A stretch of DNA of 64,000 nt from the NCBI GenBank assembly GCA_963702005.1, contig OY969696.1, positions 4,096,001 to 4,160,000 on the forward strand. The letters run 5' to 3'. The stretch comes from Candidatus Aminicenantes bacterium. GTDB lineage: Bacteria; Acidobacteriota; Aminicenantia; Aminicenantales; JAFGBC01. A program made the position numbers and the translations under genes. Of the stretch, positions 14,864-61,646 are shown one piece after another (positions within the stretch are counted from its first letter, which is position 1; each line of letters begins with the position of its first letter). The notes under the pieces were generated by a model. It saw nothing but the letters and a program-made list of their open reading frames with translations, searched no databases and was not told the DNA's origin.

Positions 14864-15010
14864 TCTCATTCAGCAATCCGTTCGGCTCATCTTGGCCAGT
14901 TCAAAAGCCATGTCATTTCTCTCCTCTCTGAAACGTTTTCCGCGATTCGACCCGCCCTTAAGAACAAGTCCGATTTAAGACTTTTTCGGCGATCTTCTTT
15001 TAATATCGCT

Positions 15011-17104: not shown

Positions 17105-17289
17105 CGGTTCCTCCTCCTGATGCGATCAGAATGAATACCGCCCATAAATCAACCCTTGCCTCGGATTATGCCCGAAGCCGAAACCCAAAGGCAAGGGGCT
17201 GCAATGGATTTCGTCCGTGCACCCCCGAATGACGACACGCCCTCCGCGGTTGTGCTAAGATATAAATTTCGTATCTGGAGGAATGTCAG

Positions 17290-19653: not shown

Positions 19654-19719
19654 AGAGCACTTCAAGATTTGACCCCGGTTTGTTTTTCCATATAATTGGG
19701 GGTGACCAAGGCGACCGTC

Positions 19720-29969: not shown

Positions 29970-30139
29970 CGTCCCCTCCTTATTTGAAGAAAATTGGCGT
30001 GATTCAATTCCTCAGGACCTTTGTTGATCAACACTAAATCACGCCTAGCGGGTCGGTTTGAAACAGAAGTATTTGCTTTTTCCGAGACGTGACGGATTCC
30101 GCCTCTCGGCGCTGAATGGCCCCTCCTCCTTAGGTCTTT

Positions 30140-30193
30140 ATTGTATCGTCATCATCGAGGCGATGTCAATCGCCGCGATGACGGCAATGTCAA
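30140..30193 (-). promoter_or_regulatory. Sigma70 promoter of paralogue 1 with a second upstream TTGACA
   Basis: TTGACA(30169-30164)-18-TACAAT(30145-30140); extra TTGACA at 30193-30188; same arrangement upstream of paralogue 2. Confidence 0.6.
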
Positions 30194-30265
30194 TAGCCGT
30201 TAAAACCGCGTTACATCCCCGCCTTGCGGCCGGCTTCGACCCTGCGGACCGTCTCGGTGCGGATT

Positions 30266-30340
30266 GGGGTCAAACCTACACTTTGTCACTAAGTGCAAAT
30301 TGTCATTTTGTACTTTTTGCCAAAGTGTAGGTTTGACCCC
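30266..30340. repeat. 75-bp REP/MITE-like palindrome
   Basis: Perfect 20-bp arms GGGGTCAAACCTACACTTTG / CAAAGTGTAGGTTTGACCCC. Confidence 0.9.
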
Positions 30341-30382
30341 AATCCTACGCAGATCTGTTCCTTATCCGTAGAAGGACGATCC

Positions 30383-40039: not shown

Positions 40040-42025
40040 ATGAAGGGGACGCTTTATTTTTCCGTGGTCGCGGCCGGGCTTCTTCTTGTCGCGGCGGCCG
40101 CCCCCGCGGCCAAGACCGATTCCCAAGACGCCGCGGCCGTCTGGACCGAGCTCGGGCCGATGGGGGGCAATATCGTCGCGCTCGCCCGCCATACGAAAGC
40201 CCCCGCCAAGATCTACGCTCTGACCGGGAGCTCCCCCGGCCAATTCTTCCGGTCCGCCGACAACGGGACAAGTTGGAAGCGCATGGCCATCTTCCAGGAC
40301 ACGGCCTATGACATCGCGGTTGATCCCAATAACGGTGACATCGTCTATGTCCTTTCTTACAGTGCCCTATACAAGTCCACGAACACGGGCGATTCGTTCA
40401 AGGAAATACGCTTCCCGGAAGGCATGCACGGCGCGGGACGTATGGCCGTTCGCCCCAACGATCCTAACAACCTCTACGTCGCCGGGACCTTCCGGGCCAA
40501 CAACAAAGAGTGTCTGGCGTTTCTCAAGTCCGCGGACGGAGGACAGACCTGGACGGCGATAAAATTCGACACGGGAGCGACCTATTCAACCGCCGCCGGG
40601 ATCGCCGTCTCGTCCAAGAATCCCAACACCGTTTATTTTTGCGGACATTATTATGACGGAAAATCGCGATACTATAGCCGCGTTTATAGGTCAAGAAACG
40701 GAGGAAACGCCTGGGACAACATCACGGGGCCCATCCTGAATCAAAACAACAAAACTCCCTCCGGCCTGGCCGTCGACCCCACGAATGCGGACCGCGTCTG
40801 GGTGGCCTATAACGACGGTGTACTCCGGAGCACGAACGGGGGAACGACCTGGCTCAAACAAAACAGCTCGTCTTTCTATGGCGGCCCCGTTGCCATCGAC
40901 CCCAACCAGGTTAACACCCTCTACGCGCCGAGCGAGAGCCTCAACGACCCTGGCGTTTACAAGAGCACGGACGGCGGAATCAACTGGAAAAAATACCCTG
41001 AGGGCGTCTACGGCTACGCCAACACGATTATCATCAAAGACAACACGATCCAGGTCGGAACATCGGCCGGGATCTTCCGGAGCAAGAACGGCGGCGGTTC
41101 CTACCAAGCGGCCCACCGCGGCATCAAGGCGACCTGGATTACGACCTTCGCGCTTTCCCCGAGCTCCCCGGGGACGATCTACGCCGAGGCCTGTGACTAT
41201 ACGTATTTCAAGTCGTCAGACGGCGGAGCGAGCTGGATGAAGGGGACCGATTTTTATCGCTGCCACAGCATCATGAATTTCGCCGTCCACCCCGGAAACC
41301 CGAACACGGTCCTCATCCTGGCCGGGGGCTGATATGACGACGACGTCTACAGGTCTGTAGACGGCGGCCAGCACATCACGAACGTCCTCCACAAGAACCT
41401 CGGCGTACTTGCCGGCGATCCCCGGAACGGAAACCGCCTGATCGCGGCCGGCCAGGTCGTGGACGGAACGGCCTCCATGGGCGCCTACATCAGCTTGGAC
41501 GGCGGGTTGACCTGGTCTCCGGTCAAGATCCGGAGTGACGCTAACAGCATGGCCACCGTCGCGGCCTTCGACCCGAAAAACAAAAAAATCCTATATGTCG
41601 GCGGCCAGGACGGCGTCAGCCGGGCCTGCTTGTACAAGAGCACGAACGACGGCGCCTCCTGGACTCAGCTCGCCATCCCGGCCGGCTTCGACATCCTGTG
41701 TCTGGCCGTCGACCCCAAAGCGTCCGGCACCCTCTACTTCGGCGGCGCCAACGGAGTCTTCAAGAGCACGAACGGAGGGTCGAGCTGGACCGAGCTGACC
41801 GGGGTTTACAACGCGCAATCCATGGCCGTCAATCCCAAGAACGGGGACGAGGTTTTTGTCGGTAACTGGTCCGGCGTTTTTTACAGCAAGGACCAGGGTG
41901 CGACCTGGAAGGACCTCAGCCAGGGCATGCCCGTGAAGTCCACGAACTGGGTCGCGGTCCACCCGACGAGCCGAATCATCTACGCCGGGACCTTCAACGG
42001 CGGGCTCCTCAAGCGGAATTTCTAA
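40040..42025 (+). CDS. Secreted BNR/Asp-box beta-propeller protein, 661 aa, with candidate selenocysteine at codon 431 (TGA 41330-41332)
   Basis: ORFs 40040-41332 and 41459-42025 are in one frame, separated only by TGA; the intervening codons keep the repeat (AGG-U-YDDDVYRSVDGG); SECIS-like hairpin follows. Confidence 0.8.
41344..41363 (+). promoter_or_regulatory. Bacterial SECIS-like hairpin
   Basis: UGA + 11 nt + CGUCUAC-AGGUCU-GUAGACG; spacing and apex match the E. coli fdhF SECIS. Confidence 0.75.
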
Positions 42026-42078
42026 GGGCTGGGGAATGAGGTTTGATACTTATAAGGTAGCGAGGAGGAGGTCGAACT

Positions 42079-43305
42079 ATGAAAGCGTCGAAAACCGTCA
42101 AGCGCCGGGAGTTCATGGCCAAGGCGGGCGCCGCCGCCCTGTCCATGACCGTTCTCCGTCCGGAGCTCGTCCGGGGGACTCAAGCCAATTCCAAAATCAA
42201 GGTCGGACTCATCGGCTGCGGCGGCCGGGGCGGCTGGATCGCCGGACTGTTCCGCAAGCACGGCGGCTACGAAATCACGGCCGCGGCCGATTATTTCAAG
42301 GAGCGGGTTGACGAGGTCGGAACGACTCTCGCCGTCCCCGAATCCCGCAGGTTCACGGGTCTCTCCGGCTACAAGCGGCTGCTCGACGCGGGCGTCGACG
42401 CGGCCGTCATCGAGACGCCGCCCTATTTCCATCCCGAGCAGGCCGCGGCTTCGGTCGACGCCGGCGTCCACGTCTACCTCGCCAAGCCGGTGGCCGTGGA
42501 CGTCCCGGGCTGTAACTCCATCGCCGAGACCGGCCGGCGAGCCTCGGCGAAGAAACGCGCCTTCCTGGTCGATTTCCAGACAAGAGCCCATCCGGCCTTC
42601 ATCGAAGCCGTCACAAGGGTCCACGACGGCGGCCTGGGCGAGCTGCTTTTCGGCGAAGCCGTCTACCACGCCGAATCGCCCTGGGAGCAGTGGTACGACC
42701 TGATCAAAACGGCCCCCGAAAATCCGGAGAACCGCCTCCGGGCCTGGGGCCTGGATAGGGCGCTTTCGGGAGATATGATCACCGAGCAGGACATCCACGC
42801 CCTCGACGTCATGAACTGGGTCATGGGGACGCCCCCGCTCTACGCCCTGGGATGCGGCGGTCTCAAAGCCCGGCCGAGGGTCGGGACCTGCTGGGACCAT
42901 TTCGTCGTCACCTACCAATATCCGGACAAAGTCGGCATCCAGTTCAGCGGCCGCCAGTTCAAGGGACACGGGACGGCTGAGGGCATCAAGAACCGCATGT
43001 TCGGATCCAAGGGAGTCCTGGAGACCGAGTACGGCGGCTCCGTCCTCATCCGCGGCGAGAATTACTACAACGGCGGGAAAACGGCCGAGATCTACGAGGC
43101 CGGGGCCGTCGCCAACATCGCCTCCTTCCATCGCGCCGTCGTCGAGGGCGATTTCCGGAATCCCACCGTCGCCCCGAGCGTCCAGAGCAACCTGATCACG
43201 ATCCTCGGCCGCAAGTCGGCCTACGAGAACCGCGTCGTCGGCTGGGCGGAGCTGCTCAAGGACGGCGAGCGGCTCACGCCCGACCTCAAGGGTTTGAAGG
43301 ACTAG
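42079..43305 (+). CDS. Tat-exported Gfo/Idh/MocA oxidoreductase
   Basis: KRREFM twin-arginine leader; GLIGCGGRG; TPPYFHPE; YLAKP; EQDIHALD. Confidence 0.9.
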   Translation: MKASKTVKRREFMAKAGAAALSMTVLRPELVRGTQANSKIKVGLIGCGGRGGWIAGLFRKHGGYEITAAADYFKERVDEVGTTLAVPESRRFTGLSGYKRLLDAGVDAAVIETPPYFHPEQAAASVDAGVHVYLAKPVAVDVPGCNSIAETGRRASAKKRAFLVDFQTRAHPAFIEAVTRVHDGGLGELLFGEAVYHAESPWEQWYDLIKTAPENPENRLRAWGLDRALSGDMITEQDIHALDVMNWVMGTPPLYALGCGGLKARPRVGTCWDHFVVTYQYPDKVGIQFSGRQFKGHGTAEGIKNRMFGSKGVLETEYGGSVLIRGENYYNGGKTAEIYEAGAVANIASFHRAVVEGDFRNPTVAPSVQSNLITILGRKSAYENRVVGWAELLKDGERLTPDLKGLKD

Positions 43306-43327
43306 ACCGCCAGCTAGGAGTATCGCC

Positions 43328-44191
43328 ATGTTTAAGATCGGCCTCGGCCTCGTGTATCTCGTCTCGGCCTTGATCGCAAGTCCGGCCGCCGCCGGCACCG
43401 CCGCGGCTTCCGGAAACGGCGGGCCCGAAGTCAGGCTGGGCGTCTGCGATTGGACGATCGGAAAGTCCGGCGACCCGGCCGCGCTCGGACTGGCCGGAAG
43501 TCTGGGCCTGGACGGCGTCCAGGTCAGTCTCGCCTCCGAGGGCGATTCGCTGGCCCTCGTCCAACCCGCCTTGCGCCGCGCCTATCTCGAAGCGGCCGAA
43601 AGGACGGGTATCGCCATCGCCTCTTTCGCCATCGGCGAGCTCAACGACGTCCCGCTCAAGAGCGACCCGCGCGCTGAAAAATGGCTGGGCCAGGGCATCG
43701 AGGTCGCCCAGGCCATGGGCATCGGGATCCTCCTGGTCCCGTTTTTCGGCAAGGGAGACCTGAGAAACGATCCTCCCGGATTCGACGCCGCGGTTGCGGC
43801 CCTGAAAAGGCTCGCTCCCCGGGCCGAGAAGGCCGATGTAATCTTGGCCCTCGAGAACTGGCTCAGCGCCGGAGAGAACCTCGCAATTCTCGAGCGCGTC
43901 GGCTCGCCGGCCGTCCGGATCTACTACGACGTCGGGAACTCCCAGGACGCCGGGCATCCCATCCTCGAGGAGATCCGACTGCTCGGGGATCGCATCGCGG
44001 AATTCCATGCCAAGGATACCAAGGACCTCTACGGCAAGGGCGCGATGGATTTCCCGGCCGTTCGCAAGGCGATGGAGGACATCGGCTACCGGGGCTGGCT
44101 CATCCTGGAGGGCACCAAGACGCCGCTGGGGGTCGAGAAGAGCATCCGCTACGACGCGGACTACCTGAAGGAAGTCTTCGCGGTCAAATGA
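43328..44191 (+). CDS. Exported sugar phosphate isomerase/epimerase (xylose-isomerase-like TIM barrel)
   Basis: Signal peptide; LALENW, YYDVGNS, FHAKD, LILE metal ligands. Confidence 0.85.
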   Translation: MFKIGLGLVYLVSALIASPAAAGTAAASGNGGPEVRLGVCDWTIGKSGDPAALGLAGSLGLDGVQVSLASEGDSLALVQPALRRAYLEAAERTGIAIASFAIGELNDVPLKSDPRAEKWLGQGIEVAQAMGIGILLVPFFGKGDLRNDPPGFDAAVAALKRLAPRAEKADVILALENWLSAGENLAILERVGSPAVRIYYDVGNSQDAGHPILEEIRLLGDRIAEFHAKDTKDLYGKGAMDFPAVRKAMEDIGYRGWLILEGTKTPLGVEKSIRYDADYLKEVFAVK

Positions 44192-44713
44192 CCGCGTCTT
44201 TTCATTTCCAGTCTCCATTGAGCAGGAAGCCCGCCCAGAAGTAGGGATGGGAAATGGTCCGGTCGGGATTACGGATGAACTCGATCTGAGCGAATTGAAG
44301 AGCCCGATCCTTGCTCAGTCCGGCCTTAAGGTAAGAATAAAACCGCGTCATCAGTTCCGAGGTGGCGACGTCCGCCACTTTCCATTGTGAGGCTAAGACC
44401 GTGCGAGCCCCGGCATACTGAAAGGCCCTTGTCAGGCCTATCAATCCTTCGCCGCCCATTTCTTTTCCCAGCCCTGTCTCGCAGGCGGAAAGCGTCACCA
44501 AGTCCGCGTCGATCCGCATCCTTTCGAATACTTCCCAAGCCTGGAGGATTCCGTTGTCCCGACCTTCTATTACGGCCGGGGGAATTGACAAGGCCAGTCC
44601 GGAATTAAGGGGGAACAACTCATCCAGGAAGCCATGGCAGGCGAAATGGATATAACGAACGCCCTTGCCGAGTGCTTTTGCCTTTTCTTCCGTCGCTTCT
44701 TCGCCCAGATAGA
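44169..44713. repeat. 545-bp direct repeat, left copy (pairs with 57341-57885)
   Basis: Colinear at constant offset 13172 with scattered substitutions. Confidence 0.92.
44202..44713 (-). pseudogene. Duplicated 3' fragment of the CHAT protease gene
   Basis: YLGEEATEE...HFACHG...LSACETG...GFLLNGDWK, nearly identical to the end of 57374-60754; homology stops abruptly at 44713. Confidence 0.88.
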
Positions 44714-45411
44714 AGGCCTCAGAGGAGAATGCGACCAAGCTGGAAGCACAACTGAAAACCACTCAGTTGCGAGCCCAGCAAACAGAACAGCTCACAAAAA
44801 CCCAGGATAAAACGTTAGCCATATTAGTAAAAGTGCTGTCTCACTCTCAACTCCAGGCGCTTCGCGCAGATGCTGAAGTAGCAGTCGCATTAGACCGTCT
44901 TAAGGAGCCCATAAACATTAATTGATCGGCGCTCCTAATTCGACAAGCGCCTGACGTGTATTTTTCACCCTAATCCTGCTAGCGGAATGCGGAATGAAGC
45001 TGCATTCAGGAGGATAAGCTTTTTGCCTCCTTGGATAGGCCCCACGATTTGACAGCTCAGACGGCTAACTAAAGAGAGTTATGTGGCCCCGAAATTGCAA
45101 ACGTCCGTTGACGCGGCCCGACTTCTCCATTTACGATGATTATGAGTTCGCGATCTTCATCGGCGGTCGCCAGCCGGGCGATAAAGCCGTCCTCGAAATC
45201 GTCCTGGGCGCGCTCGACGGGCCGATCACGGTGGGAGATGTGACCGTCGTCTCCCGGACGGCCGGCCTGAACCCGCCGAAACGTTTTAAGATCGAGGTGA
45301 CCTTCGGCGACTGGGAACGCGCCCGCTCGACGGTGTATCGATCCGAATCCCAAAGCCCAAACACGGGCTGAGCGGCCATCACGGATATCCGGGGACCCGC
45401 CCCGGCTCTGG

Positions 45412-46440
45412 CTATTTTGCGAAAGGGCGGAGTCTGTAACAGTAAATTTCAGGATTCGGCTGCAAGTTCCCGGAAGCGGCCTCTCCTGAACCTTCGAGGT
45501 AGAGAATATCGCCGCAGGCGTGGAGTATCCTCATGGATAAGGCGATGTCGCCGATAATGAAATGACCCTCTGTATCAAAAAGATCAAGGCGATCTTCGCG
45601 TTGAATAACAAGAAGCCCCAAATCGAGGTAATAAGGGCCATTGAAGATCAATGGCGAGCCGGACTTCTTGTTGCTACGGTCAAAATGAGGGTTCGTAAAA
45701 GATCGAATCCATCGTCCATCGGCCGCGTATTTCCGGACCTCATAATACAAAGGATTCATTTCATAGATGAAATCATCTTTATCAATGGCCATCCCGTCGG
45801 CGACCGCGCTGAATCCCATGTTTAAAACCGGCTGAGGAATGGGGGCAAAGGAAAAGACCGTACCGCCCTCCTTATCCAGCTTATGGATCGTATCGAAGGT
45901 ATCGCGATGGCCGGGCCTGACCGTCCCCGAGTACATAAAGATTTCGTTCTTGCTGTTTATATGAAGAAAATAATAGATCCTAGGTTTCCCCAGGATAGTA
46001 TCTCGATATCTATAATCTGAATCATAGATTATGATTTGATTCCGCAGAAAATCGGAAAGGAGAATCTCGTTTCCTGAATTAACGGCGACACTCACCGGAG
46101 TCGAATACTCGCCCGGTCCCTGGCCGCGTCGTCCCAATAATTGCTTAAACTTCCCCGTAGCGCTAAAAACATAGACTTGTCTCAATTGCCAGCCATCGGC
46201 AATTATTAAATTCCCTTTTGCATCTACATCTAAGTCGGTTATGGAAGCGATAGCCGATTCAGCGCTCAGCTCGAGATGAACGCTATTGACATCATCAAAT
46301 AGATCGCTTATTTTTCGCGCTGAAGCGATCGTTTGGAACTCTGGTCTTGATAATGGCGAAGCTTCAGAATTCTCTCGTCGAGAGCATTCAGCACATATTA
46401 AGATCAGAACCGCAAGACAAATCAATCCCCAGTTGCGCAT
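45412..46440 (-). CDS. 6-bladed beta-propeller (NHL/TolB-like), exported
   Basis: N-terminal hydrophobic leader with Cys; LIIADG..QVYVFS..GKF...LGRRGQGPGEY. Confidence 0.8.
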   Translation of the reverse strand: MRNWGLICLAVLILICAECSRRENSEASPLSRPEFQTIASARKISDLFDDVNSVHLELSAESAIASITDLDVDAKGNLIIADGWQLRQVYVFSATGKFKQLLGRRGQGPGEYSTPVSVAVNSGNEILLSDFLRNQIIIYDSDYRYRDTILGKPRIYYFLHINSKNEIFMYSGTVRPGHRDTFDTIHKLDKEGGTVFSFAPIPQPVLNMGFSAVADGMAIDKDDFIYEMNPLYYEVRKYAADGRWIRSFTNPHFDRSNKKSGSPLIFNGPYYLDLGLLVIQREDRLDLFDTEGHFIIGDIALSMRILHACGDILYLEGSGEAASGNLQPNPEIYCYRLRPFAK

Positions 46441-46514
46441 GATTCCTCTTCTAAGTATCCACCACGATTCTATTCTTCTGCGCTTTCATAGCGGCTTTCA
46501 AGCATAGACTAACA

Positions 46515-47153
46515 TTATCGCCCGAAATCAAGCTCTATTAGCGAATGCACTTTTTCAAAAAACCTAATATTTTTACCTTCATCCCTATAATCTGAAATAC
46601 TTGCCGCTATAATATGTTTATCATGGTTCAATAGTAATATTATGGGAGATAATATATGGGAAAATCTTTTTGCTAGTACATTCAATTCATCTCTAGCTGA
46701 TAATTCCCTAATATAAAATAAATTAATAAAGCTAACATATTGATATTGATCTATATCCGTCAATATTACTATTATATTAATTCTAGACCTTTCGATAAGA
46801 GGACGTTGAATTTGAAGCAATCTCATCTCTGCGCTGAGGCACCGATCACAAGATGACCCTCGAAGGATATACAACAGTATATATCCTTTAGCTTCATCAA
46901 ATAATCGGCATGCCTGCAAATTATATTTTTTAAGATCCTCAATATCTTTGCTCAAATCGATGCCCTCAAGGTTATGTTCAAGAATGGCTATCTGATCGCT
47001 CAAACTTAAAGTGATTTTATTTTTCCATATTTGATTCTCAGCCTTAATCTCTGTTACCTTTAATATTAGTGCCCCATTAATTAATATCATTATAGCAATG
47101 CAAATGAGTTGCCATTCTTTTAATATCGTGATCGCCCATTTCTTTACAAGCAT
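46515..47153 (-). CDS. Membrane-anchored protein with thioredoxin/peroxiredoxin-like CxxC domain
   Basis: N-terminal TM; LLYILRGSSCDRCL; SPIILLLNHDKHI cis-Pro-strand pattern; very AT-rich. Confidence 0.6.
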   Translation of the reverse strand: MLVKKWAITILKEWQLICIAIMILINGALILKVTEIKAENQIWKNKITLSLSDQIAILEHNLEGIDLSKDIEDLKKYNLQACRLFDEAKGYILLYILRGSSCDRCLSAEMRLLQIQRPLIERSRINIIVILTDIDQYQYVSFINLFYIRELSARDELNVLAKRFSHILSPIILLLNHDKHIIAASISDYRDEGKNIRFFEKVHSLIELDFGR

Positions 47154-47192
47154 TTAGCACTTTTCATATCATCTTTGTTTTCTTTTAAGTTT

Positions 47193-48332
47193 TCATATCA
47201 TATCAAGCTTAAGAGAATAAACAATCACATAAGGATTCCACTTCCCTTCTGAATTGCTTGAAATCCTAGCTCTAAGCATAAAGAGATTGTTTCCAAACGT
47301 CAGAATCCCGTGTGGCCCTGCTATATAATCAGGCATTATAATGTCGCCATATATCTTTATAAGATCTAAATCATATACATCTAAAAAGATCCGCTTTCCA
47401 TTTGGTTGATTAAATATTATTCCTATCAATTTGTCGCCAATACGAAAAATCTGAAGAATATGGCTCCAGGTTAAATGGTATTCTTTTCGCTTTTGAAAAT
47501 CTTCCTCAATGGCCTTATCCATTGGCTTTGAAGGCGGCACATAATAAATGGACCTTCCTTGAACTTGCTTAATGAGTTTTCCTCGAAAATCGAATTTTCT
47601 TATCAAATACTCATAAGGCTGAATGACAAATATGTGGTTTTCAACAATAATTATCCCTCCTCCCTTTGATTCTGTACCAGGAGCATAATTTTTCGATGGC
47701 CCACAAAACTTATTTAATATATTTCCATGCGTATCGCACTCATGAATAACTTCGCCGATTCCTTGAGGGCCTGCTGCGCCACTTGTGTAACAAAAGATCC
47801 TCCCGTCATTAGTAACGGCTAGCTTTTCTAAATAAAGCGGAATACCGAATTGATAATTATAGCGGAAGTCCTCATTGAAAATACAAACCCGCAGGAGATC
47901 CCCATCATAAACATAATAATGACCACTCTGCATATGATAGAACATATTATCAGGAAATAAATATTGCCCTTCTCCTTTTCCCTGGCTGCCAATTCTTGCT
48001 TTTCCTCTTCCCGTATGATCGAATACTAGGATTTGTCTAACCCATAAATTATCAAGAATAATAAAATCTCTCATAGAATTAACGGCCCCAAAACTCGGCA
48101 ACGGGCTTAGCTCGAACCCTGGACTTGTAAGTAAAGGAATGCGTTCAGTTTCTTCGAATAAATCGTTAAATGATTTTGTTAATATCGGAAATCTTGACTT
48201 ATAATTCGATTGCTTAGCAAGATTTCCTGAATGCTGTTGGTCCTCTAGAAAAAAGATGAAGACTAATAATACTAAAATAATACTCTCTAAAATCACCCTT
48301 ACGATCGAACATTTAAATCGGAATAGATACAA
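47193..48332 (-). CDS. 6-bladed beta-propeller, membrane-anchored
   Basis: N-terminal TM; FIILD....QILVFD..G....IGSQGKGEGQY; distant similarity to 45412-46440. Confidence 0.78.
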   Translation of the reverse strand: MYLFRFKCSIVRVILESIILVLLVFIFFLEDQQHSGNLAKQSNYKSRFPILTKSFNDLFEETERIPLLTSPGFELSPLPSFGAVNSMRDFIILDNLWVRQILVFDHTGRGKARIGSQGKGEGQYLFPDNMFYHMQSGHYYVYDGDLLRVCIFNEDFRYNYQFGIPLYLEKLAVTNDGRIFCYTSGAAGPQGIGEVIHECDTHGNILNKFCGPSKNYAPGTESKGGGIIIVENHIFVIQPYEYLIRKFDFRGKLIKQVQGRSIYYVPPSKPMDKAIEEDFQKRKEYHLTWSHILQIFRIGDKLIGIIFNQPNGKRIFLDVYDLDLIKIYGDIIMPDYIAGPHGILTFGNNLFMLRARISSNSEGKWNPYVIVYSLKLDMI

Positions 48333-48388
48333 TTATTATATTCTTTATTTGCTATTTTGAATAACCAATAATCTTTTTATAGATTTCT

Positions 48389-48589
48389 TTAATACCATAA
48401 GGCGCTTGCAGGCAAACAATGGTCATACGTAGCAGCTTCACAATGATATAGCGTTCCAGTTATATAAACCCAATCAAGCTTTGGCGGAACTGCCTCTGCA
48501 TTATTCGTAAATAGAACAAGAAGGCTCATACAACAGATAAGCAAAATGAACGTAACAACAAATACCGCAACCAACCTTTTATTTTTCAT
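48389..48589 (-). CDS. Secreted small peptide precursor A (signal + 33-aa HC-x6-HC peptide)
   Basis: GGGAGA RBS; signal peptide ending NAEA; paralogue at 51301-51501. Confidence 0.8.
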   Translation of the reverse strand: MKNKRLVAVFVVTFILLICCMSLLVLFTNNAEAVPPKLDWVYITGTLYHCEAATYDHCLPASALWY

Positions 48590-48610
48590 TCTCTTCTCCC
48601 TTTGTTTTAA

Positions 48611-48697
48611 AGAATATTATTATTATTCTGATAAATCAAGATTATTTACTTTTCCTAAATTTTTTTTACTTTTCTCTTTTTTTGCTATCTTTATACA
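48611..48697 (-). promoter_or_regulatory. Promoter/operator region of peptide A
   Basis: TTGATT-17-TATTCT; AGAATA-N7-TATTCT palindrome; upstream TGTATAAAGATA box; all conserved upstream of peptide B. Confidence 0.65.
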
Positions 48698-48749
48698 AAA
48701 CTGAAAATTATATTATTGCACAATAATCCTCACAATTCCTTACTTACTT

Positions 48750-50353
48750 CCGTAGATTGCCGATAGGCGGCCCCTGTTCAGGCATAAAGTCTCCTGGTAT
48801 AAGGAGTTTGAGAGAACTCATGCCCTCACCCGGTGGGTGAAGGACCTTAACCAGGAGGGTATTTTTATGATAACGCAAGGGATCTTGCCGTTCAAGCTCG
48901 AACGGACCGACGAACTCATCACGCCGAGAAGCGGGCTGGCGCTGTTCGCCGAAGTCGTCCGGACGCTCAAGGTTCGGGACAAGGTAAGATCGTACTTTCC
49001 CCGGCCGGGCTCGAACCGGGGCTACGAGGCTTGGGCCTATATTGAGCCGCTGCTTCTGATGCTGGAGGGCGGCGGGCGGCATGTCGAGGACCTGCGGGAG
49101 ATCCGGGACGACGCGGCGTTGAGACGGATCATCGGGCTGCGGCGGATGCCGTCGCTGTCGACGTTCGGGGACTGGCTGGTCAGGATGGGATGGAGAGGGG
49201 TTCGGGCAGTCGTCCGGGTTGGGGAGGAGACGGCGGAGGCGATCGGGAAGCGGATCGCGACGCCGGATGACACGCTGGATATTGACGGGACGGTGATCGA
49301 GTCGGAAAAACGGGCGGCGCAGTGGACCTATAAGAAGGTCAGGGGGTACCAACCGATCCTGGGCTTCCTGGCGGAGACGGGGGTCTGTGTGAGCCACGAG
49401 TTTCGGGAAGGGCATATCCCCGGCCACAGCGGCGCGTTGAAGTTCCTGAAGAGGTGTCTGCGGCTGTGTCCCGGGATTAAACGGCTGCGGTCCGACAGCG
49501 CCTTCTACCAGGCCGATGTCATCAACTGGTGCCAGACGCAGGGGATCGGGTTTACGATCACGGCCGACCAAAATGTTGGAGTGAAAGAGGTTATCCCGAC
49601 GGTGCGGGACTGGAGGCCGCTCCGGGACGAGGCGGGGAAGGAGATCGATCGGGAGGTCGGCACCGCGATCTATCTGCTGGCCAAAGGCCGGGAGGCGTTG
49701 CGGTTGGTCCTCCAACGCTGGCACGATCCGCAGTTGTCGCTGTTCGCGCCCTAAGGCTATTGTTATCACATCCTCGCCACCAACCGGGATGAGCTGACGG
49801 CCGAGCAAGTCGTTTACTTTCATAACCGCCGGGGTCAGGCCGAGAACCTGATCAAAGAGGTCAAGATCGGGTTCGGGATGGAGCAGATGACGAGCGGCGA
49901 CTTCGCCGCCAACGCTCTCTGGTTCGCCCTCGGCCTTTTGGCTTATAACTTGACCCAGGCCCAGAAGCTCCTCTTCCTGGACCCGGACTGGACGACGAAG
50001 ACGATCGCGACGATCCGCTGGCAGCTGATCGACGTCGCTGGGCGTCTCATCTGTCACGGCCGGAGGCTGGTCCTCCGTCTGGCCGTCTCCCGAGAGAAGT
50101 TCGTCGTCCTCCTCCGGATGCGGCAGCTCATCGCCGCCTTTACGTAACAGCCTGTTCGGCGAAGCCCCCGCCTTTCATCCCCTGTACCCCTCGGATCAGG
50201 CAAGGTCTGTTTAAAAACGCCTCTTATGGCCAACTCTGAGTCCGATGCCCGTCGTCCGGCTCGCCGCTGCGCTTGCCGTTGACCCCTGCCGTCCGCAAAG
50301 CCCCCCAGGATTCAAAAATACCAAGTCAAAAAATCTCTAACGGCAATTTCGGG
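48750..50353 (+). mobile_element. IS1380-family insertion sequence
   Basis: Imperfect TIRs CCGTAGATTGCCGATAG / CTAACGGCAATTTCGGG; GC-rich block within AT-rich DNA. Confidence 0.8.
48867..50147 (+). pseudogene. IS1380 transposase with in-frame TAA (49752-49754)
   Basis: LDIDGT, YKKVRGYQP, RSDSAFY, then after the stop RGQAENLIKEVK..FG, FAANALW in the same frame. Confidence 0.85.
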
Positions 50354-51300
50354 TCTAATGTGTTCCCATGAAGACAGCGGCATGACCGGCAGGCTAGACC
50401 CAACGGTCCTGCGCCCTAGCAAAATAAAAGTTCTTCTTATCAGAGGGATTGCGGCTTTTATTCTTGTTGCTGTAAGGCAGATAGCAGTTAATTCTTTTTT
50501 GAACTTCAGGTTCCAGCTCCCATAATTGCCCGCATCCCAACTCCAGATTAGGCCCCTCCGGCAACCCTTCCAAGTTCTTATCGGTCTATCTGATCTGTGG
50601 TAGAAAATAAACGGCGCCTGCCTCATCCTTTCCCGCATCATTCGCCAAGATTACTTCGTTCCGCTTCGCAGTTGCCTTTGGAATAATATACGACAGCTCG
50701 ATCTTCCACTTGGCGTTCTTAATAAACCGACTCCCGGGATCTGCGGCGACGTCTTTCTTCAATCCCTTTTCTATGATTTCTTTCTCCTCAAGCCCCTTGA
50801 CACTTATAGGCCGCAGATACCTTTCGACCACCTTCAGCATCATTTTCTATTTCTGAGCCGAAAAAGGACATCGAATTCGTCCCTCGTCAACATTCTTTTG
50901 CCGGAGGGATTAGCTCCGACTTCGCTCGCGTCGGTAGAGACATGGGTTAAAATCCAGCCACCCCTCTTTTTTCGTCAGAAGGACTATATAATGAAACATC
51001 ATCTTGATCAGTTCCTGATGAGTTTTTCGAAAATCGCCGATCGTCTAAAAATCCAGCATAAGCTTCTCGGTCAAGTCCGTATGGATCCCATTCTCCTGAG
51101 CTTGCCGGGTTAAACGTTACGAAGCTCGCTCTCCAGAATCCACATTTCCAAAAAAGCTCAATCTGAATCCGAGAATAATATGCCAGAGGCTTTCAGCCTA
51201 CCTCCTAGAAATCAATTTTCCTTTAATTCTGGGCGTCGGATAATAATATGTAAATACCTTCATATATAGAAGAAATAGTAATCTTTCTCTTACAGCTTTT

Positions 51301-51501
51301 TCACCAGGTCATAGCGCTTCCAGGCCAGCAATGATCTTCCAAACCAGGTTCGCAATGATAGTACAAATCAAACCAATAAATAAAGTCGAGTTTTGGCGGG
51401 ACCGCTTCAGCTTTTTTCGCAGATAAAATAAAAACGCTAATAAAACAGGATAACGATACGAGCGCAAAAACGATCGCCGCAACTAACTTTTTATTTTTCA
51501 T
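51301..51501 (-). CDS. Secreted small peptide precursor B (signal + 33-aa HC-x6-HC peptide)
   Basis: GGGAGA RBS; signal peptide ending KAEA; paralogue of 48389-48589. Confidence 0.8.
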   Translation of the reverse strand: MKNKKLVAAIVFALVSLSCFISVFILSAKKAEAVPPKLDFIYWFDLYYHCEPGLEDHCWPGSAMTW

Positions 51502-51522
51502 TTTCTTCTCCCCTTCTTTGTT

Positions 51523-51609
51523 AGAATATTAATATTATTCTAGTAAATCAAGATCTTTCTCTTCTCTTAATTTTTTTTCGCTTTTCCCTCTTTTTGTTAT
51601 CTTTATACA
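51523..51609 (-). promoter_or_regulatory. Promoter/operator region of peptide B
   Basis: TTGATT-17-TATTCT, AGAATA-N7-TATTCT and TGTATAAAGATA at the same spacing as for peptide A. Confidence 0.65.
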
Positions 51610-51690
51610 TAATTATAAATCATGGTCATTGAATTCATATTTGCCATCTCTTGACTATTAAAATAATCCAAGTTTTGTATCAAAGATTGT

Positions 51691-52422
51691 CTATTTGATT
51701 CCTGATCGGGGTATTAATTTTTCTCTTATTAGAGTTGGGGGAACTCCAAATGTTTCTTTAAAGCGCTTACAAAAAGAAGCATGGCGATAGCCAATATTAA
51801 AACTAATTTCCTTGATCAATCGATTTGTATTGATTATATCCCACAATGCAATACATAATTTATTCTTAGTAATATACTTCTCAAGAGTAAGATCTGTAAT
51901 TTCTCGGAATCTTCGAGAGAGCCAACATCTAGAAATGTCATGAATCTGTGATAGCTTTGTAAGATTAAAGGTTTCATATGGATTCTCCGCAATTTCTTGT
52001 TGTAGAGTTGCGACCTTAAAGAAGACGGTGGATGGGTGAATCATTAATCCAAGGTTTTTTATATAGTATTTTGAAGTTGTTAATTTATTAATTATATCTA
52101 ATTGATTTTGAGAAAAACAATTTACCCATTGAAAAGAAATCCCAAAAATTGGAGAAGAAAATGGTCTTTTTTTTAAACACAGTTCCCTAATCATAATAAA
52201 AGGAATATTTCGATTAGCTACCGCAAATAAATATTTATCAAGACAATGAGCAAGGCTGCATTGAAAATTGCAGTAAAGAAATATAATTTCTGTTTGATTT
52301 TTATTAATCATTTTATTATGTAAATTGACTTCTTCAAAATGATAGGTGCTCTTCCTCAATTGTTTTTTTATATTATCAGATATTTCATCGCTCATTGCGT
52401 CTAAAAGGATTTTTTTTCTCAT
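51691..52422 (-). CDS. AraC-family transcriptional regulator
   Basis: C-terminal LSRRFREIT....YI....IKEISFNIGY....F.KRFKETFGVPP..IR. Confidence 0.85.
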   Translation of the reverse strand: MRKKILLDAMSDEISDNIKKQLRKSTYHFEEVNLHNKMINKNQTEIIFLYCNFQCSLAHCLDKYLFAVANRNIPFIMIRELCLKKRPFSSPIFGISFQWVNCFSQNQLDIINKLTTSKYYIKNLGLMIHPSTVFFKVATLQQEIAENPYETFNLTKLSQIHDISRCWLSRRFREITDLTLEKYITKNKLCIALWDIINTNRLIKEISFNIGYRHASFCKRFKETFGVPPTLIREKLIPRSGIK

Positions 52423-52958
52423 TACTAAATATCAGTTAAATTCTAGTTTCTCAAGAATCCATTTTTTAAATTAATTAGTATAAATACATTAAATATTGAC
52501 GCTTATGAGCTTGAATCGTTGGATCCAAACAGTAAATTCAGAGGGATTGAAAGCTCTGAAGAGAAAAACGATTTCGGGCCGGCCGTCACGCTTGCCGCCC
52601 AAAATTGCCCAGGAGGTGGAGCGCCATTTTGAACAGTCGCCTTAAAATTTTGGCTTGAACCGGGCTCGATTGAGCGGTCCCATGCTGACAGGGTATCTAA
52701 GGAGGCGCTACGGGCCGAAGATGCAAGTACGACAAGCTCAGAAATGAATGCATCATTTAGAATATCGGCTAAAATGAACCAGTTATTTCTATCTTCAAGC
52801 CTGGGAAAGAGAGGCGAAACAATCTCGCCAAGAGTGTAAAAAAACTTCAAATTCTTAGGCTTCGGGAAACGATGCCTTTTCGGGATGAAACAGGGTTTAG
52901 CCTGCGTTCGCGACCGGGGCGGCAGTGGGTCAAGAGAGGACACTTTTTTCAATTCGCC

Positions 52959-54005
52959 CTACCACACCCTGTCAGGCCTCTTAGCTTCTACCCTGTCCTG
53001 GACGTCCTTGGGCAGGGAGGACAGGAAATCCAGACCGGTCATCTGTTCAATCTCGTCTATCGATACGAGGTATTCGCTGTAAGCGTGGCCTCTCAGGTCC
53101 TTGTTGGGCAGGAGGAAGGCCAGGGCTTCAATGTCATTCGGGTTCTTGGCGTCGACGACGATCTTGAAGAAGTGGGTGGGCACTGCGACGCTATCTTTTC
53201 CGATGACGGGATAGGAAACCTTTTTATCGGCGACGGCGAATACCGGACCCGTAATTACCGTCAGGGTCCCCTTCTGCTCCACCCATCCCCTCACGGCCTC
53301 TTCCAGGTCCTTCCAGATGCCCTGATTGAACCCGACGCCCACCTGCGGGGCTATGTTTGAAAGCAGGAAACTCTCGGCCATTACTTTTTCGTTTCTGCTC
53401 ATGTCGGCGGCCGGCGCCTGGTGTCCCCTGTCGTAACCGCTGCCTGTGTAGTCGCTCAGTTCGGCGCGGGAGCCATAAGGGATTGAGGTGTCCGGCGCGA
53501 AGGCGTTCGTCCGCTCGACTCCGCCGCTCAGGTCTCCGGGGCTTATTTCATACTGGACCCATACCGGAATCTTCAGCCTGGCGCCCTGGGCAAGCGCGTA
53601 GCCTTCCTGGAAACGTTCATACAAGGCTTCAGGCTTGCCGACTTTCAAATGGCGATTTGGCTGTGCCGTTTCTGCGCCAATCTTTTCTTCCGCTGCCGCC
53701 GGCGCTTCAACGGTTGCGCCTTCCGCCGTTCCCGCGTAGCCTCTCACATAGGTTCTATAAATCCAGCCTGACTGCCCCGTGACCGGATTGACGACTTTGT
53801 AATACCCTGCTTTCCTGTTGGACGTATCGTCGGATTTGAACTGAAGCTGGACATCTTTCTCAACAGTGCAGACTACCCTGGAATCCTTTGATGGGCTTTC
53901 GTAAACATTGGCTTTCCTCGTGACCTTCAAGTAGTCGGCGAAAGAGAAGCCTGAGATAAGGGCGATGAGCAGGGCAAGTCTCGTGGCAAACTTAGTGATT
54001 CTCAT
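52959..54005 (-). CDS. Secreted DNA/RNA non-specific endonuclease (NucA/EndG-like) with N-terminal SH3-like domain
   Basis: SGYDRGHQAPAAD, ESFLLSNIAPQ, FNQGIW..LE, VITGP, VPTHFFK; N-terminal ANVYESPS...GWIYRTYV. Confidence 0.9.
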   Translation of the reverse strand: MRITKFATRLALLIALISGFSFADYLKVTRKANVYESPSKDSRVVCTVEKDVQLQFKSDDTSNRKAGYYKVVNPVTGQSGWIYRTYVRGYAGTAEGATVEAPAAAEEKIGAETAQPNRHLKVGKPEALYERFQEGYALAQGARLKIPVWVQYEISPGDLSGGVERTNAFAPDTSIPYGSRAELSDYTGSGYDRGHQAPAADMSRNEKVMAESFLLSNIAPQVGVGFNQGIWKDLEEAVRGWVEQKGTLTVITGPVFAVADKKVSYPVIGKDSVAVPTHFFKIVVDAKNPNDIEALAFLLPNKDLRGHAYSEYLVSIDEIEQMTGLDFLSSLPKDVQDRVEAKRPDRVW

Positions 54006-56272: not shown

Positions 56273-57151
56273 GATAAGAGTTTCCTTTTCGGCTGCGCTG
56301 GCCGAGGGGACATCTTTGGAGCATCTGTGTTCCCATGGACCCATCTAACCATAATGAGGAAGCATAAATCGGACCTCAGGACCTGTCAAGGAAGGCTTGA
56401 GCGGGGGGGAAGGGCGACCCAGAAGCTGTGCGCGGCGCCCGATGCGGCGGAATTCCTCCGGACCTCCCCCCGCTCTGGAAAAAGGTTATGAAAAATATTC
56501 GACCGGGGGATCAGCGGCCAGGAGATATTCCTGGAAGGCGACCTGAGGCGGCGGTGGCCTGTCCGCCACAAAGGTTAACTTCAGGTGCGCGATGATCCGG
56601 TCTACGACGGCAGACTCCGTGAGGAAGGCGACAACCTTCATGGTCCCGCCGCATTTCGGACAGAGCATCGGGTCGATCTCATAGACCTTCCGGATCATCG
56701 CCGCCCAGCCCTTGGAGGGGATGCGCAGGAGGTCTTCCTCGACCAGGCGGAGGACCGGGGGATTCTGGGCCGCCTTCCGGACTTTCCCTCGGTGGGCATT
56801 GGCATAGAGGCCGTAGTAGCGGACCATGACTTGCCCTTTGTCGGGGATGTGCGAGGTCACCCGGGCGATGAACTCCAGATAGTCCATCGTCTCTTGCTCG
56901 GCCGCGTTTTGACCATATCGGCAACCGACCTTGCCCTCGGGCTCCAAAAACGAGAGCCTCTCCAACGACAGCACCGTCCGGATCATGTACTTTCCGACCC
57001 GCTCGGCTTCCGGCTTGGTCTTGGCCCTCACCCGGCTGTGGACTGAGAAGCCTGTCACCTCATCCACTCCGCCCTCGGTCACCAGAAAATGAAGGTGCGG
57101 GTGAAGATTAATCCTATCCCCGAACGTCTGGATGGCCGCAATGATGCCGGG
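56273..57151 (-). mobile_element. IS91/ISCR-like rolling-circle element remnant (truncated Y2 transposase plus oriIS-side end)
   Basis: QTFGD.IN.HPHLHFLVTEGG (HUH), GFSVH, KYMIR, VRYYGLYAN, CPKCGG; N-terminus missing; end AAAAGGAAACTCTTATC resembles oriIS. Confidence 0.75.
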
Positions 57152-57340: not shown

Positions 57341-57885
57341 AGGAGGTCTTTGCGGTCAAATGACCGCGTCTTTTCATTTCCAGTCTCCATTGAGCAGGAA
57401 GCCCGCCCAGTAGTAGGGATGGGAAATGGCCCGGTCCGGATTGCGGATGAACTCGATCTGAGCCAATTGAAGAGCCCTGTCCTTGCTCAGTCCGGCCTTA
57501 AGGTAAGAATAAAACCGCGTCATCAGTTCCGAGGTGGCGACGTCCGCCACTTTCCATTGTGAGGCCAAGACCGTGCGAGCCCCGGCATACTGAAAGGCCC
57601 TTGTCAGGCCTATCAATCCTTCGCCGCCCATTTCTTTCCCCAGCCCTGTCTCGCAGGCGGAAAGCGTCACCAAGTCCGCATCGATCCGCGTCCTTTCGAA
57701 CACTTCCCAAGCTTGGAGGATTCCGTTGTCCCGACCTTCCATTACGGCGGGGGGAATTGACAGGGCCAGTCCGGAATTAAGGGGGAACAACTCATCCAAG
57801 AAGCCATGGCAGGCGAAGTGGATATAACGAACGTCCTTGCTGATAGCCTTGGCCTTTTCTTCCGTCGCTTCTTCGCCCAGATAGA
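57341..57885. repeat. 545-bp direct repeat, right copy (pairs with 44169-44713)
   Basis: Includes the last codons of the isomerase gene (EVFAVK-stop) and the CHAT 3' end. Confidence 0.92.
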
Positions 57886-60754: not shown

Positions 60755-60767
60755 GGCCGCTCTCCCC

Positions 60768-61646
60768 CTAATCAGGCGTCGGGGGAGTCCTAAAAAGCCC
60801 CAGCAATTTGGGGAAAGTTTCATTCTCCGGAAATTGCGCGCGGGCCGTCTGTACGGTCCGGTAGGCATCGTAGAAGAGCCCTTTGTCGAGAAGATAGCCG
60901 TACTCGACAAGAAAGCGGGTGATCCGGTTTCCCTCCGGGATTTCTTTGATCACCTCGGCAAGCTCTCCGCGGAGGGAATTCGTCTCGGCTTTGCTCAGGA
61001 CCTGAAACTTTCCTCCGCCTTGATTGGAGTCCGAAAAAATCACCCAATTGTATATCATCCCTTCCCGAAATATTTCCGCGGGAACTCTCGCCTGGCTCTC
61101 CTGAATCTGTTTTTCATAAACCGATTTTCGCTCCGTCCCATCCGCTTTTTGATAGATATGCAGGGAATAGGGAGGGCGATCTTCCTCCCATTGAAAAATG
61201 AGGCCGCCTTCCGGGTAGAGAACCGGCGTGTTGTCGGGCTGGATGATCTTGACGGCGCTTTTAGCCCGGGTGACCAAGGCGACCGTTCTCTCCTCATCTT
61301 TTCGGATCAGGCCCTGGAATATTTTCTTCAATTTTGAAACGGCCTTCTTGCCCCTGCTCTCCGCGATCTTAGGCTCTTGGATCGTATAGGGCGAGGTCGC
61401 TTCGCTGATGCTCTCGGTGCGAAGACCCAGATAGTTCAGAACCGCCTTTCCGCCCGCTCCGATACGGATGACATCGCCGGGATAGAGGGGCTGAAGAGGA
61501 AGGAGGTCCGCCCAGTCATGGCCCCTCATTATTTCCGCCTTTCCCGCAACCTCGGTAAGGGTCGCAGCCGGAGCCCTTGTTTCCTCGGCCAAACCGAACA
61601 GGCCGGCGATGATGGATATCAAACCGAAAAGACACATTCTTTTCAT
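60768..61646 (-). CDS. Secreted protein with FecR-like N-terminus (DUF928-like partner of CHAT/CHASE2)
   Basis: Signal peptide; LYPGDVIRIGAGGKA; ALVTR; YNW; GLFYDA near the C-terminus. Confidence 0.6.
   Translation of the reverse strand: MKRMCLFGLISIIAGLFGLAEETRAPAATLTEVAGKAEIMRGHDWADLLPLQPLYPGDVIRIGAGGKAVLNYLGLRTESISEATSPYTIQEPKIAESRGKKAVSKLKKIFQGLIRKDEERTVALVTRAKSAVKIIQPDNTPVLYPEGGLIFQWEEDRPPYSLHIYQKADGTERKSVYEKQIQESQARVPAEIFREGMIYNWVIFSDSNQGGGKFQVLSKAETNSLRGELAEVIKEIPEGNRITRFLVEYGYLLDKGLFYDAYRTVQTARAQFPENETFPKLLGLFRTPPTPD

Follow-up and report, generated by a model that had tools for sequence, protein, structure and literature searches.

In a stretch of 64,000 nucleotides (nt) from the Candidatus Aminicenantes contig OY969696.1 (assembly GCA_963702005.1, positions 4,096,001 to 4,160,000 of the forward strand), which we call the window, an island of low guanine plus cytosine (GC) content at about 45.4-52.9 kb carries a small gene cassette. 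It codes for two paralogous peptides, A and B, each with two His-Cys dyads in the arrangement HC-x6-HC (HC peptides), for two six-bladed beta-propellers, A and B, and for a CxxC protein with the motif CDRC; a gene for an AraC-type regulator lies beside it. The HC peptides are a new family and extend a known but uncharacterised type of cassette to a new phylum; judged by gene layout, the locus is the Acidobacteriota/Aminicenantes counterpart of the NVEALA/DUF5128/CxxC cassettes of Bacteroidota. Our reading is that a Sec-exported peptide with a pair of Cys residues is handled by a membrane-anchored thioredoxin-like protein and two NHL-type propellers, with antagonism or signalling as the probable role, and we put the probability of this reading at roughly 0.4.

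The HC peptide family

An earlier note on this DNA described two paralogues of 66 amino acids (aa) with Sec-type signals ending in AEA and mature tails identical at 17 of 33 residues, and this description holds, with signal and cleavage as predicted features. Over the 66 aa the two peptides are 48% identical, with 32 invariant columns. The back-translated pattern HC-x6-HC-x-P-x-S-A is found exactly twice in the window and in none of 100 shuffles. Because 14 of the 32 identical residues are encoded by different codons and the ratio of nonsynonymous to synonymous substitutions (dN/dS) is 0.51 for the pair (dS 0.76, dN 0.39; 0.53 in the signal), both open reading frames (ORFs) look coding and are under purifying selection as proteins. 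The note also took the variable loops to suggest a diversifying specificity; dN/dS, which is 0.46 in the mature part, gives no support for this.

A HMMER profile search of 1.84 billion representative proteins (E <= 1e-3) gave 13 matches: peptide A, 10 relatives of 66-73 aa (E down to 4e-18) and two long proteins. The 10 relatives were kept and aligned with peptides A and B in 12 rows. This search found a real family in which the Cys and His residues, the PxSA motif and the Ala at position -1 are kept in all 12. The residues invariant throughout are M1, the predicted -1 Ala, H49, C50, H57, C58, P60, S62 and A63, and the spacing from HC to HC is constant. W40 is present in 11 of the 12, the remaining one being peptide B with Phe40. 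Apart from the CxxC motif, the peptide Cys pair is the sole invariant Cys pair in the cassette.

Read from the alignment, the HC peptides start with basic residues, followed by a hydrophobic core some 20 residues long and an AxA-type site with the -1 Ala in 12 of 12; at position -3, scored by eye, 9 of them have Ala, 2 Leu and 1 Thr. The predicted cleavage site resembles that of signal peptidase I. Neither Pfam nor NCBIfam contains a family that matches any of the 12 peptides, and word-index homologue searches with peptide A or the CxxC protein gave no protein from outside the window. Both long proteins from the profile search were dropped. P0008 (636 aa, E 2e-9) has no second His and no PxSA motif; it consists of 12 tandem repeats, each with YHCEEGFSNWC. 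P0012 (554 aa) was set aside as not belonging to the family.

The cassette and its relatives

A scan of 185,579 species genomes with a degenerate DNA pattern gave 58 loci. When these were read in frame only two were true family members, L025 in a Candidatus Aminicenantes metagenome-assembled genome (MAG) and L032 on a contig of 1015 bp. Thirty-seven loci in Pseudomonas were rejected, having one unrelated stretch in common, and 19 isolated loci were chance matches; one of these, L004, falls within a glycosyltransferase gene and is read there in a different frame. A further search with a 5-row peptide alignment gave 46 pattern matches, none of which was confirmed.

The gene order in L025 is the same as in the window: peptide, propeller, CxxC protein and propeller, with gaps of 22-61 nt. 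The first propeller is 44% identical to propeller A, the CxxC protein 31% identical to the CDRC protein with SCDRC retained, and the second propeller 42% identical to propeller B. The linkage of the peptide to propellers and a CxxC protein, which the earlier note had described in the window, thus recurs in a second genome. A propeller gene directly downstream is found for peptide A and in L025, and not for peptide B, where an insert follows, or in L032. Directly upstream of the HC cassette, L025 has a second module (positions 39-1877) consisting of a 178-aa protein, a 350-aa DUF5128 propeller and an 83-aa peptide. The 178-aa protein can be weakly aligned to the CxxC protein (21% identity) and has CC in place of CxxC; the 83-aa peptide bears a signal and 7 Cys, and its start overlaps the stop codon of the 350-aa propeller, whose family has at least 11 further clusters from Aminicenantes-type sources. 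L032, binned with a Minisyncoccia MAG, has at 224-1007 a 63-aa Gly/Ala-rich hydrophobic ORF and a 187-aa signal-bearing ORF, and no propeller; it represents either a different gene context or a chimeric assembly.

Both propellers of the window exceed the gathering score of PF17170 (DUF5128, 22.9 bits) with 41.8 bits for A and 66.1 bits for B; B has an additional NHL match of 21.4 bits, and the two are 24% identical. The AlphaFold model of propeller A (pLDDT, the predicted local distance difference test score, 86.7) has about 24 strands in a six-bladed NHL-like fold. Its best fold match in the PDB is 4RAA (B. fragilis BF0058, E 4e-14), an exported protein without known function, followed by the NHL domains of Brat and TRIM, and sequence-profile matches to NHL domains reach E 2e-19. 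Profile searches with the propellers gave 82 proteins at E <= 1e-5. Among them, 23 further clusters share 40-56% identity with propeller A, and those few that bear a name come from Candidatus Saccharicenans and Acidobacteriota; no further orthologue of propeller B was retrieved. The polar residues of propeller A that are invariant over 23 rows include D94, N95, R99, D143, D145, R178, Y182, S184, E198, Y240, Y242, S290 and D318; since they lie at canonical NHL-repeat positions they are not evidence of catalysis. In about 16 of the 23 rows, judged by eye, a Cys ends the N-terminal hydrophobic stretch as in lipoproteins. A prediction of the complex between propeller A (residues 50-379) and mature peptide A, made without controls, scored 0.48, 0.02 and 0.02 in three runs and speaks neither for nor against binding.

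The propeller B gene is richer in GC than the genes for propeller A and the CxxC protein by 10-14 points, in the window (0.465 against 0.32-0.36) as in L025 (0.423 against 0.28-0.31), a difference that seems to belong to the gene itself rather than to mark a separate acquisition. BF0058, the protein of 4RAA, may correspond to BF9343_0058, which a table of a B. fragilis transcriptome paper lists as 'Lipoprotein'; the same table gives BF9343_0061 as a 'Redoxin domain-containing protein' (PMC11402942).

The CDRC protein is probably a membrane-anchored thioredoxin-like protein. It has no match in Pfam or NCBIfam at E <= 0.1 (no thioredoxin, redoxin or AhpC-TSA model) and no PDB sequence match at E <= 1. 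Its nearest Atlas clusters are named 'Redoxin/Thioredoxin domain-containing protein' (0.96-0.97, about 200 aa, mostly Bacteroidota). In its low-confidence model (pLDDT 53.6) the order is strand, CxxC, helix, strand, helix, strand, strand, helix, with CxxC starting the first helix, and the Foldseek matches are weak and all of the ResA/TlpA type (E 3e-4 to 2e-2, template modelling score 0.3-0.5). Atlas neighbours, order of elements and weak fold matches together make plausible the term 'thioredoxin-like' which the earlier note had used. With the ResA/TlpA/CcmG class the protein shares an N-terminal anchor and, in the low-confidence model, a CxxC that starts a helix after a strand and the order of elements. 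It differs in that neither an HMM nor a PDB sequence matches it, and its CDRC dipeptide is an uncommon one for this class. A conserved cis-proline before strand 3 is a feature of the thioredoxin fold; the window protein has a Pro at this position (SPIILLL), as have, by eye, all 4 of the CxxC proteins of the Bacteroidota cassettes, and the proline is not kept at the aligned place in the L025 orthologue.

These Bacteroidota cassettes were found on records reached by tblastn of propeller B against plasmids; propeller A gave no match to plasmids. In the first 50 kb of the Phocaeicola vulgatus plasmid NZ_CP096966.1 there are four NVEALA genes, each of the four followed by a gene of the propeller family. 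Cassette 1 has the layout of the window: NVEALA, propeller, a 176-aa CYPC protein with a hydrophobic stretch before the motif, and a second propeller. Cassette 2 consists of NVEALA and a BF3164-family lipoprotein only, and cassette 3 of NVEALA, propeller and a 177-aa CTSC lipoprotein. In cassette 4, NVEALA and propeller are followed by a protein annotated as redoxin (CSSC; AhpC-TSA E 9e-4). Next comes a signal peptidase I, which hints at a dedicated cleavage, perhaps also a further modification, of NVEALA peptides. The region of this cassette (41696-49194) holds, after the signal peptidase I gene, an O-antigen-ligase-family gene, a hypothetical gene and a transglutaminase-domain gene.

A P. 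dorei plasmid carries the same element as the P. vulgatus plasmid and does not count separately. On a P. massiliensis record the gene for an NVEALA-like peptide precedes those for a DUF5128 propeller and a CNVC protein, and on a B. fragilis plasmid an NVEALA gene is followed by a weak TolB-like propeller. Two other loci were set aside: L062, in which a Chondrinema propeller has a 184-aa neighbour, is no CxxC cassette, and L061 is a DUF4934 fragment standing by itself. The statement of the earlier note that NVEALA genes lie next to genes for six-bladed propellers is thus borne out by all six NVEALA or NVEALA-like genes examined on plasmid records; in four of the six loci the CxxC protein comes next after the propeller, and these four represent two Bacteroidota plasmid lineages. 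The window propellers are distant homologues of the P. vulgatus propellers (pairwise E 1e-6 and 6e-7).

What the window shares with these cassettes is the order of a peptide with a hydrophobic N-terminus and a Cys-bearing core, a DUF5128 propeller and a CxxC protein. The CxxC proteins of the NVEALA cassettes are 141-208 aa long and have the CxxC directly after a hydrophobic stretch, as in the window protein. The cassettes lie in mobile DNA, several per replicon, and one of them adds a second propeller. The window differs in belonging to another phylum, in having an adjacent AraC gene and in lacking a dedicated signal peptidase. The peptides also differ: NVEALA cores have 4-7 Cys and no conserved His, whereas HC peptides have two Cys and two invariant His and carry the AxA site directly after the hydrophobic core, with no NVEALA motif. 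Membership of the HC peptides in NVEALA was rejected by Pfam, by motif and by hhalign. None of the 12 reaches the gathering score of PF14055 (27 bits; the best, P0010, has 14.5 bits, E 0.029, residues 3-24), as against 47 bits for true NVEALA genes, and the motif N-V/I-E-A-L-A after the hydrophobic segment is absent in all 12. Since the NVEALA motif ends in A-L-A, an AxA sequence, and cassette 4 has a signal peptidase, the comparison suggests that HC and NVEALA peptides may both be released by signal peptidase I.

Other known systems resemble the cassette in part. Bacteriocins of class II that depend on Sec, and bacteriocin operons with their own thiol-disulfide oxidoreductase, are known from enterocin P, pediocin PedC and sublancin BdbB. 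They have, as is predicted for the window, a small Sec-exported peptide, a Cys pair capable of forming a disulfide and a thioredoxin-like gene in the operon; in the window, however, the host is probably diderm, no outer-membrane route is encoded and no immunity gene was recognised. A cluster of the TIGR04149/TIGR04150 radical-SAM type, for ribosomally synthesized and post-translationally modified peptides (RiPPs), on the Parabacteroides distasonis plasmid NZ_OY725758.1 has DUF5128 propellers beside a small precursor and a regulator. In contrast to this cluster the window has no radical-SAM maturase, pseudo-rSAM, LanC-like protein or glycosyltransferase, and the TIGR04149/TIGR04150 precursor is, unlike the window peptides, without a Sec-type signal. 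Clusters of this type are, in a passage of PMC4573289, regarded as putative bacteriocin loci. Bufferins and DAG-RiPPs, which are made with MNIO enzymes, are described in part of PMC13056109 as having a Sec or lipoprotein signal and functional Cys, some of them binding metal; the window cassette has no MNIO/DUF692 gene or partner gene. The NVEALA/DUF5128/CxxC cassettes of Bacteroidota are known from annotation families alone. A literature search returned no paper naming NVEALA or DUF5128, and on BF3164, DUF4934, PF17170 or PF14055 it gave nothing of relevance; two transcriptome papers merely list such genes in their tables (PMC10434189, PMC11402942).

The locus and its surroundings

All genes named by the earlier note were found where it had placed them, on the minus strand (Table 1). 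Its term 'AT-rich' is right for the other cassette genes, with GC contents of 0.32-0.38, and wrong for propeller B at 0.465. An IS1380 element lies between the peptide genes as it had described; this insertion sequence (IS) is broken, and about 1 kb of extra DNA separates the peptide genes as well. Because each of the four cassette products begins with a hydrophobic segment, all four are predicted to act outside the cytoplasm.

Table 1. Coordinates of the island features in the window and of the cassette in L025
Locus	Feature	Position	Strand	Remarks
Window	AraC/XylS-type regulator, 243 aa	51691-52422	minus	PF12833 HTH_18 C-terminal
Window	Upstream block of peptide B	51502-51613	minus	A-rich; AGAATA-N7-TATTCT inverted repeat; GGGGAGAAG ribosome-binding site
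Window	Peptide B precursor, 66 aa	51301-51501	minus	predicted signal ending AEA and 33-aa HC-x6-HC tail
Window	Insert between peptide genes, about 1 kb	50250-51250		GC 0.47; no Pfam match
Window	IS1380-family transposase, broken, two ORFs (305 aa, 89 aa)	48837-49754 and 49878-50147	plus	NF033539, PF13701
Window	Upstream block of peptide A	48590-48704	minus	AGAATA-N7-TATTCT inverted repeat as in B; GGGAGAAG ribosome-binding site
Window	Peptide A precursor, 66 aa	48389-48589	minus	predicted signal ending AEA and HC-x6-HC tail
Window	Propeller A, 379 aa	47193-48332	minus	N-terminal hydrophobic anchor and six-bladed NHL-like beta-propeller; PF17170
Window	CDRC (CxxC) protein, 212 aa	46515-47153	minus	predicted membrane anchor; probably thioredoxin-like
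Window	Propeller B, 342 aa	45412-46440	minus	N-terminal hydrophobic segment and DUF5128/NHL propeller
Window	Degraded transposase-like remnant, right island edge	52493-52950	plus	PF13565 HTH_32 below cut-off
L025	Peptide	2323-2520		frame broken by 1-nt shift in T9 run
L025	Propeller, 377 aa	2582-3715
L025	CxxC protein, 210 aa	3744-4376
L025	Propeller, 343 aa	4399-5430

The blocks upstream of the two peptide genes are identical at 87 of 108 aligned columns (81%), as compared with 133 of 201 (66%) in the coding sequences and 28 of 72 (39%) in the DNA farther upstream. Both have the inverted repeat given in Table 1 and a strong ribosome-binding site of the GGGAGAAG type, and a sigma-70-like site lies immediately upstream of the peptide A block, at 48735-48707. 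An Rfam scan of 44000-54000 gave no match, the upstream blocks included, and the RNA folds of the blocks are not convincing (z 0.78 for peptide A and -1.81 for peptide B). The 108-nt block may be either a promoter-operator or a 5' leader. The C-terminus of the AraC protein matches PF12833 with 40.4 bits (cut-off 33.6), and the protein also has many sub-threshold matches to AraC-family models of NCBIfam; its N-terminal 135 aa match no family. The GC content of its gene, 0.296, is similar to that of the island. This window is the one locus in which an AraC gene was seen beside the cassette; the L025 contig begins 2.3 kb upstream of its peptide.

The AraC gene, both peptide genes and the genes for propeller A and the CxxC protein have a GC content of 0.30-0.40, as against about 0.576 for the window overall. 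Since, in addition, IS remnants both flank and interrupt it, the island is foreign, horizontally acquired DNA in a stretch rich in mobile elements. The IS1380 copy has a host-like GC content of 0.62; its two parts score 174.1 and 70.3 bits on NF033539 (cut-off 180), PF13701 matches as well, and no clear terminal inverted repeats were found. The insert at 50250-51250 has four stop-to-stop ORFs without a Pfam match, and 50150-51300 has no match among plasmids. No remnant of a cassette gene was seen in the insert, and no further ones in the window. At the right edge, the remnant at 52493-52950 has broken frames and an HTH_32 match of 29.4 bits (PF13565, E 1.2e-6, cut-off 33.7). In agreement with the earlier note, no RiPP enzyme or ABC exporter is recognisable with Pfam or NCBIfam among the island ORFs. 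A known anti-phage defence system was considered and rejected, none of the 10 island and flanking proteins matching a PADLOC model (E <= 0.01).

Left of the island, at 44202-44762, is a truncated CHAT gene, an ORF of 186 aa with only the C-terminal part of CHAT, and 13 kb to its right, at 57374-60910, follows a full PDZ-TPR-CHAT protein of 1178 aa; between them are a Y2-type transposase fragment (56486-57082) and a gene for SH3 and non-specific endonuclease domains (52959-54005). Elsewhere in the window, 14066-20634 holds a second low-GC patch (15-17 kb, GC 0.44) with a 697-aa ORF and a neighbouring 1161-aa ORF, which have no Pfam match and adjoin an AbiEii toxin-type gene. At 27174-33178 are two tandem paralogues of 931 aa with BNR, Kre9-like and multiple CARDB domains.

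Possible function and its alternatives

The mechanism we propose hypothesizes that the 66-aa precursor is exported by Sec and that signal peptidase I would then cleave it behind the invariant Ala (AEA/VPP) to give a 33-aa peptide. The CDRC protein would act on the two Cys of this peptide, most likely closing or proof-reading a disulfide between Cys50 and Cys58. The propellers, from the conserved gene order, would be extracytoplasmic partners of the peptide, serving as scaffold, carrier or immunity protein, and AraC together with the conserved upstream block may control expression of the peptide genes. By analogy with the comparators the product would be a disulfide-constrained exported peptide working between cells in antagonism or signalling. 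An exported bioactive peptide is preferred because the comparators occur in several copies, have hypervariable cores, lie in mobile DNA and are associated with RiPP loci.

Several observations weigh against this proposal. Complete HC-type loci number only two, the window and L025, so the neighbourhood evidence comes from few loci. L032 has the same peptide as L025, and its DNA diverges right after the stop codon into unrelated ORFs. In both (L025 2323-2520, L032 63-261) the peptide frame needs a 1-nt change in a run of nine T, located directly after a good ribosome-binding site and ATG start; the break could be a sequencing error, a pseudogene or phase variation by slippage. In the window the locus is split by the IS, and propeller A is without the lipobox Cys that most of its orthologues carry. 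The CDRC protein has neither a thioredoxin HMM match nor a PDB sequence match, its model is poor and the cis-Pro is absent in L025; no homology to the Bacteroidota CxxC proteins was found by BLAST or hhalign. The peptides likewise have no sequence relation to NVEALA, an hhalign comparison of the HC alignment with six NVEALA sequences aligning two columns. Diversifying selection on peptides A and B, with dN/dS below 1, is not supported. Pfam and NCBIfam recognise no outer-membrane exporter, immunity gene or modifying enzyme in the island, and in the absence of a recognisable exporter the release of the peptide from a diderm cell is left without explanation. Finally, a simple disulfide does not account for the invariant His beside each Cys.

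The last two points are best accounted for by a different model, which we hold to be unlikely, in which the peptide remains in the envelope as a periplasmic metal-handling mini-protein and the two His-Cys dyads form a 2His-2Cys site for Cu or Zn. The thioredoxin-like protein would then be a reductant of the TlpA/ResA type which keeps the thiols free, and the propellers would be docking partners. A His next to each Cys at fixed spacing in 12 of 12 peptides would be needless for a plain disulfide, and an encoded outer-membrane exporter is missing. Proteins of the ResA/TlpA class act as reductants, and it is to this class that the CxxC model is matched best by fold; these matches come, however, from a low-confidence model. 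Sec-exported Cys-based copper-binding peptides exist in the form of bufferins, as stated in part of PMC13056109. The Bacteroidota cassettes of the same layout fit the metal model poorly, having cores with 4-7 Cys and no conserved His, and four hypervariable copies on one plasmid would be unusual for metal homeostasis; the island moreover contains no metal transporter or sensor, and its regulator is of the AraC type.

Two further models are weaker than the metal site. In methylamine dehydrogenase a propeller large subunit goes together with a Cys-rich small subunit and the thioredoxin-like MauD, and the conserved order of small Cys protein, propeller and thioredoxin-like protein might, by that precedent, describe a periplasmic propeller enzyme with the peptide as its small, possibly cofactor-bearing subunit. 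We consider this quite improbable. The many invariant polar residues of propeller A over 23 rows would suit an enzyme, but they are at canonical repeat positions, and the folds that match best belong to binding domains rather than to enzymes; NCBIfam has no model that matches the CxxC protein, and hypervariable multi-copy Bacteroidota peptides are a poor fit to an enzyme subunit. W40 is nearly invariant in the peptide; with Phe at this position in peptide B, a Trp-derived quinone cofactor was rejected. We give equally little credence to the view that the cassette is decaying foreign DNA, no longer functional in this genome, with small ORFs that are not expressed. That view draws on the IS1380 copy and the 1-kb insert which split the locus, on the transposase remnants and truncated CHAT gene at the flanks, on the frameshifted peptide gene of L025 and L032 and on the missing lipobox Cys of propeller A. 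Yet the broken element is the IS and not the cassette, whose genes are full length when compared with L025 (379/377, 212/210 and 342/343 aa); both peptide genes retain all invariant residues, strong ribosome-binding sites and an upstream block identical at 81%, and dN/dS is 0.5.

Returning to the exported peptide handled by propellers and a CxxC protein, the same layout around an unrelated and simpler peptide argues that the propeller and CxxC pair serves quite generally as a module that handles small exported Cys peptides. At 33 residues, of which two are Cys and two His, and with a plain signal-peptidase site, the HC peptide is a minimal substrate that can be synthesised for the study of propeller and redoxin function. 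DUF5128 '6-bladed beta-propeller' and NVEALA are recurrent annotations in gut Bacteroidota, with four cassettes on one examined plasmid, and if their products are antagonistic or signalling molecules, mobile DNA would carry a class of these that is so far unexplored. One may go a step further, to an idea we regard as rather doubtful, and suppose that HC and NVEALA peptides belong to one uncharacterised class of Sec-exported Cys peptides spanning phyla, in which one or sometimes two propellers, NHL-type proteins or lipoproteins, and a private thioredoxin-like oxidoreductase are a new machinery for peptide maturation, presentation or immunity. If true, the class would be new, of a bacteriocin-like or RiPP-like kind, and would do without both the classical modifying enzymes and ABC exporters. 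Its smallest representative would then be the 33-aa HC-x6-HC peptide, as a hairpin that redox state or metal switches.

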